In this document: positions 28,646-35,078 of the stretch, one piece after another
How the letters are laid out: each line of letters begins with the position of its first letter
How positions within the stretch are numbered: the first letter of the stretch is position 1
Assembly: GCA_044355035.1 (NCBI GenBank)
Contig: JBIKYX010000003.1
Span: 10,851 to 74,850, forward strand
Direction of reading: 5' to 3'
Source: Pseudanabaena sp.
Lineage (GTDB): Bacteria; Cyanobacteriota; Cyanobacteriia; Pseudanabaenales; Pseudanabaenaceae
Length of the DNA stretch: 64,000 nt
The notes under the pieces: model-generated
Databases searched by the model: none
What the model was told of the DNA's origin: nothing
The model's input: the letters and a program-made list of their open reading frames with translations, nothing else
Program-made: the position numbers and the translations under genes

Positions 28646-28972
28646 ATGACTTTACAAAGTTTAGAACCACAACTACTGTCTTTAAGCCAAAACGAAAAAA
28701 CACGGGCAATTCAGATATTAGCTCAAAGTCTTGGCAATCCTTGGCGGGGCATTCAGAAGACGTTGGGGGTATGTGGTGGTGATGCTTGCATTGGTTTAAC
28801 TCGGATTCCTGTGTGGGTTTTGGTTAACGCTCGTGATATCGGAATTAGTGAATCTCAACTTTTAAAAGATTATCCGACTCTATCGGTAAGTGATTTAGCA
28901 AATGCTTGGTTTTATGCTTCGATGTATCCTGAAGAAATTGCCTTGGCTATTAAGGAGAATGAAGAAGCTTGA
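28646..28972 (+). CDS. DUF433 family antitoxin-like protein, no partner toxin gene
   Basis: Motifs GVCGGDACIGLTRIPVWVL and DLANAWFYA; GGGAG RBS. Confidence 0.88.
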   Translation: MTLQSLEPQLLSLSQNEKTRAIQILAQSLGNPWRGIQKTLGVCGGDACIGLTRIPVWVLVNARDIGISESQLLKDYPTLSVSDLANAWFYASMYPEEIALAIKENEEA

Positions 28973-29031
28973 GGTGACATGAGACAATTTGGTACAATTT
29001 TATGTAAATTCATCCTGTGGCTTAAAACGCT

Positions 29032-29121
29032 ATGACTTTTCAGACACTTCACGAACAAGTACTAACGCTTCCCGAAGATGATCGTTGGGAATTATTTCTC
29101 GATGGATTATGGTCCCTGTGA
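29032..29121 (+). pseudogene. Truncated antitoxin-like N-terminal fragment
   Basis: MTFQTLHEQVLTLPEDDRWELFLDGLWSL* parallels the N-termini of the two neighbouring DUF433 proteins (MTLQSLEPQLLSLS, MTIQEIEHQFLNIS). Confidence 0.4.
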
Positions 29122-29168
29122 CTACGCGCAGAGCCAAATTTGATCTTATCAGTATAAAATAATCCTCT

Positions 29169-29473
29169 ATGGCAAAAGATTTATATCACGATCTTGTTAA
29201 ACGCGCACTGAAAAAAGATGGATGGGAAATAACTCACGATCCATACGAATTGCGTGTAGGTGGTGTAGAAATGTATGTAGATATTGGGGCTGAACAGATT
29301 ATTGGCGCTGATAGAGGGAATGATAAAATAGGGTTTTATATTTGGCTGTACCTCATTTTGTCTATCAAACCTTTTTTAATCTATCCTTCATTAATAGAGT
29401 TATACAGCGAAGTCAATTGAATCTTTTGGTTTATGACTTAGATAAGGAGAGCATTGAACAATGGATAAAGTAG
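29169..29473 (+). pseudogene. xisH-family gene with internal deletion and frameshift
   Basis: The N-terminus (KDLYHDLVKRALKKDGWEITHDP...DKI) joins out of frame near 29330 to a XisH C-terminus (RVLYLAVP...LLVYDLDKESIEQWIK*). Confidence 0.85.
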
Positions 29474-29802
29474 TTATATATAGGCAATATATTCAACAGC
29501 TAATGCAGGCAAGAGCAGATCGTTCTATGCAATCGTCAAAGGACGTTGAGGCTCAGACGATTTTTGATGTGGAGCGTGACCATTATCAACTAGTCTATGT
29601 GGGTTGGAAACGTAATAATATAAGGGATTACGGATGTTTACTACATCTGGATATTAAGGATGGAAAGATTTGGATTCAATATGATGGTACTGAGGGTGGT
29701 ATTGCTTACGAGTTAGTGAAATTAGGTGTACCTAACCAAGATATAGTTTTAGGCTTTCAACCTGCTAAAGTTCGTTCTGCAACTGAGTTTGCTGTGGGTT
29801 AG
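29461..29802 (+). CDS. XisI family protein
   Basis: Motifs DHYQLVYVGW, HLDIKDGKIWIQYDGTE and DIVLGF; start overlaps the xisH end. Confidence 0.92.
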   Translation: MDKVVIYRQYIQQLMQARADRSMQSSKDVEAQTIFDVERDHYQLVYVGWKRNNIRDYGCLLHLDIKDGKIWIQYDGTEGGIAYELVKLGVPNQDIVLGFQPAKVRSATEFAVG

Positions 29803-29931
29803 TAACGTGCCGAAAAGTGTGAAACTATCCTTGTTTGAATATGACTTGAGTAATGGTTTTAATTGGACAGATCGAGAGCAAGAGGCGATCGAGGATATCA
29901 ATTAGTGCATCAGACATTGGTGCGATCGCTC

Positions 29932-30027
29932 CTACCTTGATGGGCGCACAACTCTAATAAGTTTACCTTGCAGAGATTCTTGAATAGCGATTGCTTCATT
30001 AATTCGAGTTGCCATGCGTCGTGCCAT
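29932..30027 (-). pseudogene. DUF5615/PIN-like toxin gene collapsed by in-frame internal deletion
   Basis: ATG 4 nt after the DUF433 stop. Reads MAR-RMATRINEAIAIQESLQGKLIRVVRPSR*, i.e. the first and last residues typical of the DUF433-associated PIN-like partner. Confidence 0.7.
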
Positions 30028-30030
30028 TGG

Positions 30031-32400: not shown

Positions 32401-33807
32401 ATGATTTCTGATAACCTTGTCATTGAATTAAGAGCAATTTTACAGGCGCAAGGTCATCTGTTACAACGGCTGAGTGACCGCATAAGTGAAATAGAATCCA
32501 AATTTGTCGATGTATCTCAACAGTCAAGTCAACTTCAAGACTTAGAACAGATGATGGCAGACTTGGAACGCGATATCGAATTTCTAGAAGATGAAGATCT
32601 TGCCAACTTCGATCCTGATGAGATTTATCAAATCTACGATCATCATCAAAATGCTATTAAACGGGACTTGCAAGTGATCGGGTTTACAGATTGGCAGAGT
32701 TTTGTACAGCAATGTCAAATCTACGATCTGCAAAATGGACTCGATCCGCTTGCCCCTTACGAAGTATTCCTAACCGAAGCTGATTTACAGCAATTAGCCA
32801 ATGAGAAAAAGTCCTATGATGCTCAATTTGCATGGGATAAGTGGGACTATCTATTTGTGGGTGCGAGTGGAGTTCTTGCCGCATTAACTGATGTTTTTTT
32901 AGTGGGAACTCCAAAAACTAGCCCTCTAACTAAACATCTCAAAAAATTCAATACAACCGCCAAAGCAGGGCAAACTGATTGGTTTTCGCAATGGGCTAGA
33001 GACTTAGAAAAAGCTTGTAAAGTCCCTTACGATAATCAGGATATCAAGGGAATGTATCCCAAAAGCCATCGATTTCAATCACTTGGACATGATCCTGTTT
33101 TAGGATTTGTCTTTGGTGTACTAGATATTATGAGAGCCACAGTTACAGGCTTTTCCTATGACAAGCTAACTGGACTTCATAATTTTGTCACTCATTCTGT
33201 ATCAGACGATGTTTCGATTAAGCTCGTTGAAGCGATTCTTATACAGCTTGGGCATCTTATTTCAGATGTAGCAACCCCAATGGGTTTACCCGCTCCTTTT
33301 ATGACCTTAATGCAAGGAATTAATATTGGTAGCTTTGGTGAAAAAAAGCGATCTGTTGGTCAAATCGCTCGGTGGATGTATTTGAATGGCTATGATTTGC
33401 GTCACTTTCTTGCTTCTGGAATTACACCTGCGGTTGTGGAAATAGTTTTGAGGGCATACATTATGATTCGACATTATTCTGAACATGGGGAAGTCAAATT
33501 TGACCTTGCTTCACATCCAAAATATAGATCGATGTTGTTGATGGCTCATGGCATTGCCACGACTGCAAATGCTGGGAAAGTCATTCTCCTCACAGGAGGT
33601 AATCCTTTAGCAATCAATTATGCTGAATATATGGCTTTCATTCGCTATCTGATTCCTAGTCTCAAATATTGGTTATTTGACCAACAACATTTGAGTCTAG
33701 AACACATGGAAAAAATTAATGAATCAGAATGGAATGATTTACTGGATAACAGTGATCGCCTATTAGCTGCGATTGCCAAGCAAAATTTTCCATTAATTTC
33801 CCTCTAA
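32401..33807 (+). CDS. Hypothetical protein, operonic partner of the TerB gene
   Basis: 468 aa; ATG 3 nt after the TerB stop; N-terminal coiled coil, HRFQSLGHDP motif, hydrophobic segments. Confidence 0.8.
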   Translation: MISDNLVIELRAILQAQGHLLQRLSDRISEIESKFVDVSQQSSQLQDLEQMMADLERDIEFLEDEDLANFDPDEIYQIYDHHQNAIKRDLQVIGFTDWQSFVQQCQIYDLQNGLDPLAPYEVFLTEADLQQLANEKKSYDAQFAWDKWDYLFVGASGVLAALTDVFLVGTPKTSPLTKHLKKFNTTAKAGQTDWFSQWARDLEKACKVPYDNQDIKGMYPKSHRFQSLGHDPVLGFVFGVLDIMRATVTGFSYDKLTGLHNFVTHSVSDDVSIKLVEAILIQLGHLISDVATPMGLPAPFMTLMQGINIGSFGEKKRSVGQIARWMYLNGYDLRHFLASGITPAVVEIVLRAYIMIRHYSEHGEVKFDLASHPKYRSMLLMAHGIATTANAGKVILLTGGNPLAINYAEYMAFIRYLIPSLKYWLFDQQHLSLEHMEKINESEWNDLLDNSDRLLAAIAKQNFPLISL

Positions 33808-33885
33808 ATGTCTATCCCACTTCGAGTGATCGCAGTTTATGGAATGAGATCGCTCCTTTGAGATCAAGATTGGGGCGATCGCTAT

Positions 33886-34124
33886 CTAAGCAATCTCCGC
33901 CAAAGGCATAAAACTTACACTCTCTAAAGCACGAGAAGCAAACAAGCCCTAATATCCGCCTCAACCAAACCTTCATACTCTTCCAAAATCTCCGTCACAG
34001 TTGCACCATGAGCCAGCAGATTTAGAATGTACTCAACAGATAACCGAGTCCCTCTAATGACAGGCTTTCCCACCATCACTCTAGGACTAGAAGAGATCCG
34101 ATTTAACAAATCTTGTTCTTTCAT
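33886..34124 (-). pseudogene. DUF433 family gene with 3' frameshift
   Basis: RISSSPRVMVGKPVIRGTRLSVEYIL...DIRAC, then the family-like tail (FASRALESVSFMPLAEIA*) continues in another frame. A HIP1 site follows at 33875-33882. Confidence 0.7.
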
Positions 34125-34228
34125 ATTTTCTAAGAATTGAGCCTGACTTATCACAAACATCATAACCAAACTTACTCCCAAGCCCTGATTTATCCTCTAA
34201 ATTTCAGAACTTAGAAAATAGCTTACCA

Positions 34229-34273
34229 TTGACTTAGAAAGCAAACAACGTAGAATAGTACGTATATTTATAC
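34229..34273 (+). promoter_or_regulatory. Putative sigma70-type promoter with adjacent palindromic operator
   Basis: TTGACT-16 nt-TAGAAT followed by GTATA-TT-TATAC, upstream of the Phd-like gene. Confidence 0.45.
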
Positions 34274-34339
34274 TACACTCTCCCAAATAATCATCACAAT
34301 TTTCCCACACGCTCAAAACCAACTGTTGACCAAAAAACT

Positions 34340-34798
34340 ATGAACTCCATTTACTCAGATGAACTAGTCACAGCCACCGAGCTAAACCGTCAACCAGGCA
34401 GAATCTTAGACAAAGCCCTAGAGCATCCCATCACCATTACCCGCAACGACCAATCCTTTGCTCTATTGCGGCGAGAAGACGTAGCTCTATTTGTAAAAAC
34501 TGCCCAACATAGCCGCGAAATTGTCGAACTTCTCAATACAGCCTTCCGTTTATTGCTAAACCAAAAAATTGGCGCAGAGCATCCCTATGGTTGGCTCGGA
34601 GCATTTGACGCAGACGAATTAAATGAATTTATTAACGAAGTGATCTCAGCCTATCGCTCAGTTGCCTTACAAGAACCAAAAAATTTCGACAAAGCATGGA
34701 ATGAATTAGAAGCAATTATCCATGAATGGTATGAGAGCGCCTTAGCGATCGCCAATCCAGACTTAGAAGCAGCCTTTACTCAAATCAAGCAATCTTGA
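34340..34798 (+). CDS. Phd/YefM-like antitoxin with extended C-terminal domain
   Basis: Phd-type N-terminus VTATELNRQPGRILDKA..HPITITRND. Confidence 0.75.
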   Translation: MNSIYSDELVTATELNRQPGRILDKALEHPITITRNDQSFALLRREDVALFVKTAQHSREIVELLNTAFRLLLNQKIGAEHPYGWLGAFDADELNEFINEVISAYRSVALQEPKNFDKAWNELEAIIHEWYESALAIANPDLEAAFTQIKQS

Positions 34799-34799
34799 T

Positions 34800-35078
34800 A
34801 TGTCAGAAAACAGCACCGAAAAGATCAACGAAAATATCGAACCACCAGAAGTAAAGCTGACAACTCCTGATTCACCTGAAACTTCTAATACACCCAAAAT
34901 AGAAACTATTTGGCTAGTAGTAGCTAAAAATCGTCGCGTAAATCGAGACTGGGAAGCCTTAATCCAGCGAAATCCTGAAAACGCCAGACGTTGCTACAAA
35001 GACCTACAGACAGCACCAATAACGAGACAGCCTGGACGGCGATCGCAAACAGGCGATCGCCATCTATCTCCAAAATAA
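34800..35078 (+). pseudogene. RelE-like toxin gene truncated at twin HIP1 sites
   Basis: Coupled to the antitoxin. After ...CYKDLQTAPITRQPG the frame runs into GCGATCGC-AAACAG-GCGATCGC (35039-35060) and ends. The toxin family is inferred from position and recalled similarity. Confidence 0.55.

Follow-up and report, generated by a model that had tools for sequence, protein, structure and literature searches.

Why would a run of small toxin-antitoxin (TA) modules lose one half of nearly every pair and hold on to the other? The question is raised by a 6.7-kb island in the chromosome of Pseudanabaena sp. (GenBank assembly GCA_044355035.1, contig JBIKYX010000003.1), which we analysed within a stretch of 64,000 nucleotides (positions 10,851 to 74,850 of the contig; hereafter, the window). 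The source assembly is a draft of 4.39 Mb. The island is bounded by kdpA (26645-28384, minus strand) on one side and by pdhA (35100-36128, minus strand) on the other, and it holds seven small TA-type gene pairs. In six of them the toxin has been lost through small deletions; where the toxin is gone, the antitoxin gene has mostly been kept. A preliminary description of the window, made from its letters alone, read this pattern either as the expected decay order of addiction modules or as a bank of orphan antitoxins kept under selection. Intact orthologues and a genus-wide census bear out the first part of that interpretation, while the second part appears unlikely. We suggest that plain toxin-first erosion, in which TA modules decay toxin before antitoxin, explains the island, and we put the probability of this reading at roughly three in four.

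Exact junctions and intact orthologous pairs

A Pfam scan of the island returned three DUF433 genes, all scoring above the Pfam cut-off, together with a split XisH, a whole XisI, a BrnT, and a weak Phd-like match (Table 1). In a DNA search of 40 relatives, each small module recurred separately, in varied contexts and at 90-99% identity, in genomes of the same genus (numbered here with G; C and L mark contigs and loci). Hence, we regard the modules as mobile cassettes. Intact orthologous pairs were found in same-genus genomes, at 92-99% DNA identity, for all five modules of the census described below, and alignment with such intact homologous pairs placed the lesions at exact junctions. The preliminary description had claimed that a first DUF433 gene (DUF433a) has no PIN partner, that xisH has lost its central part beside an intact xisI, that the PIN-like partner of a second DUF433 gene (DUF433b) is collapsed to 31 amino acids, that a third (DUF433c) ends at a HIP1 palindrome (GCGATCGC) with no partner, that the toxin following a Phd-like gene is cut at twin HIP1 sites, and that only BrnT-BrnA looks complete. 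The alignments agree with it on each of these observations, apart from minor changes to coordinates.

The toxin of DUF433a has been removed cleanly. In nine same-genus loci, a DUF5615/PIN-like gene of 113-114 amino acids (PIN1) lies directly 3' of the DUF433a orthologue and overlaps the antitoxin stop codon, and exactly 357 bp are missing from the window relative to intact congener loci. Where G023 reads GAAGAAGCCTGA, then the segment from the toxin gene through GCGATCGCTATTTC, then TTGAGGTGAC, the window reads GAAGAAGCTTGAGGTGAC. DUF433a shares 99% DNA identity with a G017 copy that is still paired with its toxin, and since only 3 of 376 bases differ between the two, the toxin loss is recent. 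The junction is followed by the remnant of a sixth degraded module, which had escaped the preliminary description. It is a VapB-like stub (open reading frame [ORF] 29032-29121) whose homology ends at 29094; in G023 the full-length VapB-like gene precedes a PIN_3 toxin that is absent from the window.

In xisH, the deletion takes out the A-V-E-V-K segment, whose E-V-K belongs to the PD-(D/E)XK motif, and throws the rest of the gene out of frame. PIN2, the partner of DUF433b, survives as a 31-amino-acid ORF in which the start region runs on, in frame, into the final 28 codons of a 113-amino-acid DUF5615 gene. The same deletion allele, with the same junction, is present in the independent assembly G059, and PIN2 junctions that differ from it occur in G003, G046/G051, and G061. 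An adjacent, co-oriented PIN-like toxin is absent beside DUF433a and DUF433c or reduced to a stub beside DUF433b, whereas the toxin is present in the orthologous loci (DUF5615, E 2e-23 to 5e-22). Because DUF433 is kept and the partner toxin is gone, the window holds former members of the DUF433-DUF5615 VapBC type.

At the far end of the island, DUF433c can be aligned with intact pairs as far as 33886, which leaves 3 bp to a HIP1 site (33875-33882). DUF433c is itself damaged, a lesion that had also gone unnoticed: a 7-bp slippage deletion (two copies of TGTTTGC reduced to one, 33938-33944) replaces its last 17 residues, and its ORF coordinates are corrected in Table 1. An intact pair of the DUF433c type, 95% identical, is found on contig C61 of the same genome. 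The neighbouring Phd-like antitoxin has a weak PhdYeFM (PF02604) match, confined to its N-terminal 30 residues (E 0.0017, 18.5 bits, short of the 29.8 cut-off), and homology of the RelE-like toxin that follows ends at 35039, the first of the twin HIP1 sites (35039-35046 and 35053-35060). In the complete genome G045 (C1:481500-483500, L055), the two modules form one whole block in which RelE-like and Phd-like genes point one way and DUF433c and DUF5615 genes the other, with the toxins outermost. This is presumably the ancestral arrangement; in the window, each of the outer toxins has been eroded.

The seven modules stand at different stages. One pair is intact (BrnTA); its BrnA-like member, a protein of 90 amino acids encoded with an 11-nt overlap with BrnT, lacks a Pfam match and is kept with BrnT in G016 and G017. 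Four modules combine a dead toxin with an intact antitoxin (DUF433a, XisI, DUF433b, and Phd-like), and in two the antitoxin has been hit as well (the DUF433c frameshift and the VapB-like stub). This genome alone carries at least four of the lesions: the deletions in PIN1 and xisH, the truncation of the RelE-like gene, and the frameshift in DUF433c.

Table 1. Genes, remnants, and junctions of the island, in window coordinates
Feature	Position	Strand	Evidence or detail
DUF433a, intact orphan antitoxin (VapB-type, COG2442)	28646-28972	+	Pfam DUF433 E 1.9e-15; alignments to G017, G022, G001, G023
Junction of clean 357-bp deletion; whole PIN1 toxin gene and the HIP1 site behind it gone	28968-28972	+	YTGA microhomology
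Remnant of second module; promoter-proximal part and first 21 codons of an 87-amino-acid VapB-like antitoxin	28968-29121	+	97% identity to G023:C7 (L013 3875-4000)
xisH pseudogene; 107-bp deletion at 29329/29330	29169-29473	+	Pfam XisH profile positions 3-56 and 96-133, in two frames; alignment to G017, G023, G002
xisI, intact, 113 amino acids	29461-29802	+	Pfam XisI E 1.4e-42, full length
PIN2 remnant, 31 amino acids, DUF5615/PIN-like toxin	29932-30027	-	In-frame 246-bp (82-codon) deletion at 30018
DUF433b, intact orphan antitoxin, 109 amino acids	30031-30360	-	Pfam E 8e-21; 100% amino-acid identity to paired G008 copy
BrnT (30535-30810) and BrnA-like partner (30800-31072), both full length	30535-31072	+	Pfam BrnT_toxin E 9e-29; full-length matches in G016, G017
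DUF433c, orphan antitoxin, ORF 33924-34181, frameshifted; DUF5615 toxin gone	33886-34181	-	Pfam DUF433 E 1.5e-20
Phd-like antitoxin, intact, 152 amino acids	34340-34798	+	99% identical to paired copies
Putative RelE/ParE-like toxin, cut off after codon 80 of 129	34800-35078	+	Alignment with seven congeners
BnzA (TerB domain) and BnzB, Bunzi-type defence cassette, intact, not TA	31300-33807	+	PADLOC BnzA E 8e-40, BnzB E 2e-89; Pfam TerB

Toxin and antitoxin lesions across the genus

For the census, 48 Pseudanabaena genomes were searched with intact reference modules, and the loci were fetched and scored for both genes; apparent toxin truncations that are contig ends (G058:C346, G054:C520, and G053:C471) were removed. 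Over the five modules, both genes were intact at 47 loci, only the toxin was dead at 31, both were dead at 6, and only the antitoxin was damaged at 1. In the same order, the counts were 9, 4, 1, and 0 for DUF433a/PIN1; 7, 4, 2, and 1 for DUF433b/PIN2; 13, 9, 2, and 0 for XisH/XisI; 13, 6, 0, and 0 for Phd-like/RelE-like; and 5, 8, 1, and 0 for DUF433c/DUF5615. The asymmetry of toxin over antitoxin lesions, 31 versus 1, is far beyond chance. XisH was dead in 11 of the 24 close Pseudanabaena loci, and XisI was never the first to go. The sole antitoxin-only case, at G061:C42 (L073, 27600-28600), is a DUF433b gene without its first 48 codons and the upstream/promoter region, next to a whole PIN2 ORF of 112 amino acids, one codon shorter than the reference.

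The asymmetry shows three further features. First, the deletion junctions differ and many alleles are therefore independent, with at least four deletion alleles for PIN2 and at least five each for xisH and the RelE-like gene. Second, point lesions (stops or frameshifts) that strike the toxin only were found in PIN1 of G059, XisH of G009 and G011, the RelE-like gene of G021, and BrnT of G005, the last being a stop codon. Third, the order of the two genes makes no difference: the toxin is the upstream gene of xisHI and of BrnTA, and it is still the one lost. At the G021 locus (C31, L007), a +2 insertion in the RelE-like gene is offset by a -2 deletion 88 bp downstream, so that the frame recovers once ~30 codons have been altered, a stop among them; the toxin is thus inactivated, and the adjoining antitoxin is intact.

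The genome of the window shows the same imbalance elsewhere, with 27 DUF433 versus 17 DUF5615 matches and 11 XisI matches versus 4 intact XisH genes. On its contig C93 (114-441), a BrnT stub of 22 amino acids adjoins an intact BrnA with 90% identity to the island copy. Further DUF5615 stubs lie behind DUF433 genes on contigs C17 (38956-39400) and C36 (53376-54000), and on C23 (14242-14379) a PIN N-terminus is fused to a DUF433 gene. Beyond the genus, a survey of 151 cyanobacterial genomes that counts matches, not copy numbers, gave 464 XisI versus 361 XisH. XisI was the more numerous of the two in 52 genomes and XisH in 13 (sign test p ~1e-6, with related genomes not being independent); eight genomes had XisI alone, and one had XisH alone. 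The island is an extreme but typical case of the genus pattern.

Probable toxin-first erosion and its alternatives

We suggest that the stretch between kdpA and pdhA would be a high-turnover spot in which small mobile cassettes have gathered, namely the seven TA-type pairs and one Bunzi cassette, and that the TA modules would erode there by small deletions of 7 to ~360 bp. Were an antitoxin lost or damaged while a stable toxin was still being made, the cell would be killed or arrested, so that only toxin-first lesions would survive and be seen. Once the toxin is dead, the antitoxin would be free to persist or to decay. On this basis we infer that viability filtering, and not a use of the orphans, produces the asymmetry.

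The toxin-first principle has already been published, and our finding is confirmatory. In Photorhabdus, TA systems cluster in small high-turnover spots and undergo a 'two-step decay' (Belot et al. 2026, PMC13617665), and the decay of ccdO157 in E. coli was reported by Mine et al. 2009, as cited in PMC2654758. The island resembles these cases in the clustering of TA modules in a small high-turnover spot, in its truncations and small deletions, and in the later decay of the antitoxin. Toxin-only pseudogenes far outnumber antitoxin-only pseudogenes in our census as they do in Photorhabdus, where the counts were 185 toxin-only, 186 both, and 8 antitoxin-only (PMC13617665). Unlike these precedents, the island belongs to Cyanobacteriota, its junctions often adjoin HIP1, and its predicted modules are of other types (DUF433-DUF5615, a Pfam-less RelE-like family, BrnTA, and xisHI). 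The DUF433-PIN type itself is experimentally validated as a TA system: in Synechocystis vapBC10, the toxin causes arrest and the antitoxin neutralises it (PMC3834315). Our modules share with this PIN-COG2442 VapBC type a DUF433 antitoxin that precedes a PIN-like toxin, the two genes overlapping or standing apart by 1-4 nt, as well as many copies per genome and stand-alone DUF433 genes, which are also listed in a Synechocystis catalogue (PMC4963859). They differ in that their toxins belong to the DUF5615/Mut7-C-like branch and are deleted in the island. VapB10 of Synechocystis is an activator of its own operon.

What we add is a new and well-resolved cyanobacterial instance, with exact junctions and intact comparators, in a phylum whose TA evolution has been little studied. 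In addition, the decay asymmetry could serve as a genomic test for the dangerous half of an uncharacterised pair, and it points to XisH and to the Pfam-less RelE-like family.

Three points weigh against toxin-first erosion as a full account. The orphan antitoxins do not look neutral, which hints at a continuing function, something not expected of pure decay. The junctions of ~8 of 20 deletion alleles have a HIP1 site nearby, and a deletion mechanism may shape part of the pattern. Finally, the toxicity of PIN1, PIN2, XisH, and the RelE-like protein is predicted.

The first of these points bears on the alternative that selection maintains the orphan antitoxins, which would neutralise cognate toxins on incoming plasmids or other elements, allowing the host to shed such elements without post-segregational killing. 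We consider this unlikely, even though near-identical modules do travel on plasmids within the genus. An intact Phd-like/RelE-like pair is carried by the MOBP-type plasmid ABRG53a (NZ_AP017561.1, 61413-62262) and an intact DUF433c-DUF5615 pair by plasmid pPg_02 of P. galeata CCNP1313, each at 92-95% DNA identity to the window copies, and the window orphans are 98-100% identical in protein sequence to antitoxins of intact pairs. Within one genus, the chromosomal orphans are confronted by plasmid-borne modules almost identical to them, which is the setting that an anti-addiction model needs. The model also has an experimental precedent in ccd of Erwinia versus the F plasmid (reviewed in PMC2654758), and orphan antitoxins are abundant in Klebsiella, for which the same three interpretations have been offered (PMC7192599). 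Like the Klebsiella orphans and the ccdEch-F ccd case, our toxin-less chromosomal antitoxins are highly similar to those of intact modules, some of them plasmid-borne. In the tested ccdEch-F ccd precedent, however, the chromosomal module is a complete pair, whereas here antitoxins alone remain. Meanwhile, no close cognate of the PIN1, PIN2, or RelE-like toxin was found in this genome, and there is hence no evidence of present exposure. Here the preliminary description had asked whether cognate toxins are encoded elsewhere in the genome: a close one is present for DUF433c only (on C61), the nearest own-genome toxins to PIN1 and PIN2 are 57-63% identical, and none was found for the RelE-like toxin. 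Whether orphans and intact copies exclude each other within a genome was rejected as a test, as an orphan normally derives from the genome's only copy.

The substitution pattern of the orphans can be read in two ways. Neutral evolution, which the preliminary description had raised, is not supported: the ratio of non-synonymous to synonymous substitution rates (dN/dS) of orphans is 0.04-0.13, near the 0.05-0.08 of paired copies. Among orphans that share one deletion junction, synonymous versus non-synonymous changes number 38 versus 6 for XisI (G013, G049, and G054), 20 versus 3 for DUF433b (window and G059), and 17 versus 7 for DUF433c (G009, G012, and G017). Between 85 and 90% of orphan differences fall at third codon positions, spread along the genes, and the upstream regions are conserved along with them. 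However, the toxin remnants are themselves 2-4x less diverged than the four-fold sites of the adjacent antitoxin genes, at 0.02-0.10 versus 0.08-0.26 per site (L030-L032, that is, G013, G049, and G054; and window 29932-30027 versus L065 of G059). A constraint on the remnants as 5' leaders is one possible reason; another is recombination that swapped antitoxin alleles with paired ones, which could mimic purifying selection. We therefore do not take dN/dS as proof of selection. In addition, two of the six retained island antitoxins are damaged (the DUF433c frameshift and the VapB-like stub), the antitoxin has been lost too at 6 of the 37 loci that lack a toxin across the genus, the same pattern extends genome- and genus-wide beyond the island, and the toxin-first filter suffices alone for the asymmetry.

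The second point raises the alternative that deletions are driven by their mechanism, with HIP1 palindromes or other local features making segments prone to deletion and toxins being hit by the position of the sites and not by addiction. The window contains 114 HIP1 sites, a number that marks cyanobacterial DNA, and plasmid and protein matches name the genus Pseudanabaena. In four of five window lesions (28968, 30018, 33886, and 35039), a HIP1 site is found at the junction or no more than 12 bp away from it. Over the genus, the ~8 of 20 independent deletion alleles with HIP1 at this distance compare with ~2 of 20 expected at 1 site per 560 bp, HIP1 being scored in the derived or the deleted ancestral sequence (other loci L024, L027, and L066-L068). 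Near a single HIP1 site lie the endpoints of three independent PIN2 deletions, and a 1997 paper, as cited in PMC5861425, reported that HIP1 promotes excision. The palindromes thus adjoin junctions above expectation, which bears on the old question of the role of HIP1. However, the count was made after the pattern had been noticed, four of the five reference modules have no internal HIP1, and neither the xisH deletions nor most of the DUF5615c and RelE-like alleles have one at the junction. Moreover, this mechanism cannot explain the toxin-only point mutations in G059, G009, G011, G021, and G005. As an explanation of which gene is lost, we regard it as very improbable.

That the pattern is an artefact, whether of assembly errors in a draft of 174 contigs and 95.6% completeness or of DUF433 and XisI genes that were never paired (stand-alone DUF433 genes being on record in Synechocystis; PMC4963859), is hardly credible, given that remnants of the lost genes are still in place (the PIN2 stub, both xisH ends, and 80 RelE-like codons), that the PIN2 deletion allele recurs in the independent assembly G059, and that analogous lesions occur in the complete single-contig genomes G002, G006, G045, and G060.

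The xisHI pair, the RelE-like family, and other features

XisH and XisI are accessory factors of the XisF recombinase in excision of the fdxN element of Anabaena (Hwang et al. 2014, as cited in PMC4853749). The island pair belongs to the same Pfam families, XisH with its PD-(D/E)XK nuclease fold and XisI, and has the same overlapping gene arrangement. It differs from the XisF-XisH-XisI system in that no serine recombinase was found, the pairs lie amid TA cassettes, and XisH is lost while XisI is kept. When we looked for XisF, the genome, 95.6% complete, gave no PF07508 or PF00239 match to a serine recombinase, and xisHI would therefore behave as an addiction module does and not as a helper of XisF. 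We tentatively propose, at somewhat less than even odds, that outside heterocyst-forming cyanobacteria xisH and xisI may be addiction modules in which XisH would act as a PD-(D/E)XK nuclease toxin that XisI restrains. The TA-cassette neighbours, the overlapping genes, the lack of a serine recombinase match, and the decay signature all point in this direction. If so, xisHI pairs would not be recombinase helpers, and solo XisI proteins may be orphan antitoxins. We found no paper that treats xisHI as an addiction module.

The 129-amino-acid RelE-like family occurs across the cyanobacteria without a Pfam domain, and a few sources label it as a toxin. Its AlphaFold model, of low confidence (mean predicted local distance difference test score [pLDDT] 49), has the strand-helix-helix-four-strand order of RelE, and the top 20 Foldseek matches of this low-confidence model in the PDB were all RelE, YoeB, or ParE (probability <=0.97, E from 6e-3). 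The RelE-like, BrnA-like, VapB-like, and 31-amino-acid products gave no Pfam, NCBIfam, or PDB sequence match. A scan of the island for promoters and terminators gave counts equal to the shuffled expectation and was uninformative, and a phage collection contained no match to the island.

The Bunzi cassette sits in a 3.4-kb stretch without HIP1, and a copy 86% identical to it lies elsewhere in G017 (C45). A 43-bp repeat capped by HIP1 half-sites is present at 28531-28571, 30411-30453, and 31098-31136 of the window and at 507-532 of contig C93. These are the only four copies in the genome, each adjoining the cassettes described here, and homology blocks shared with congeners begin or end at the repeat. 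Two of the copies flank the BrnTA cassette (30411-31133).

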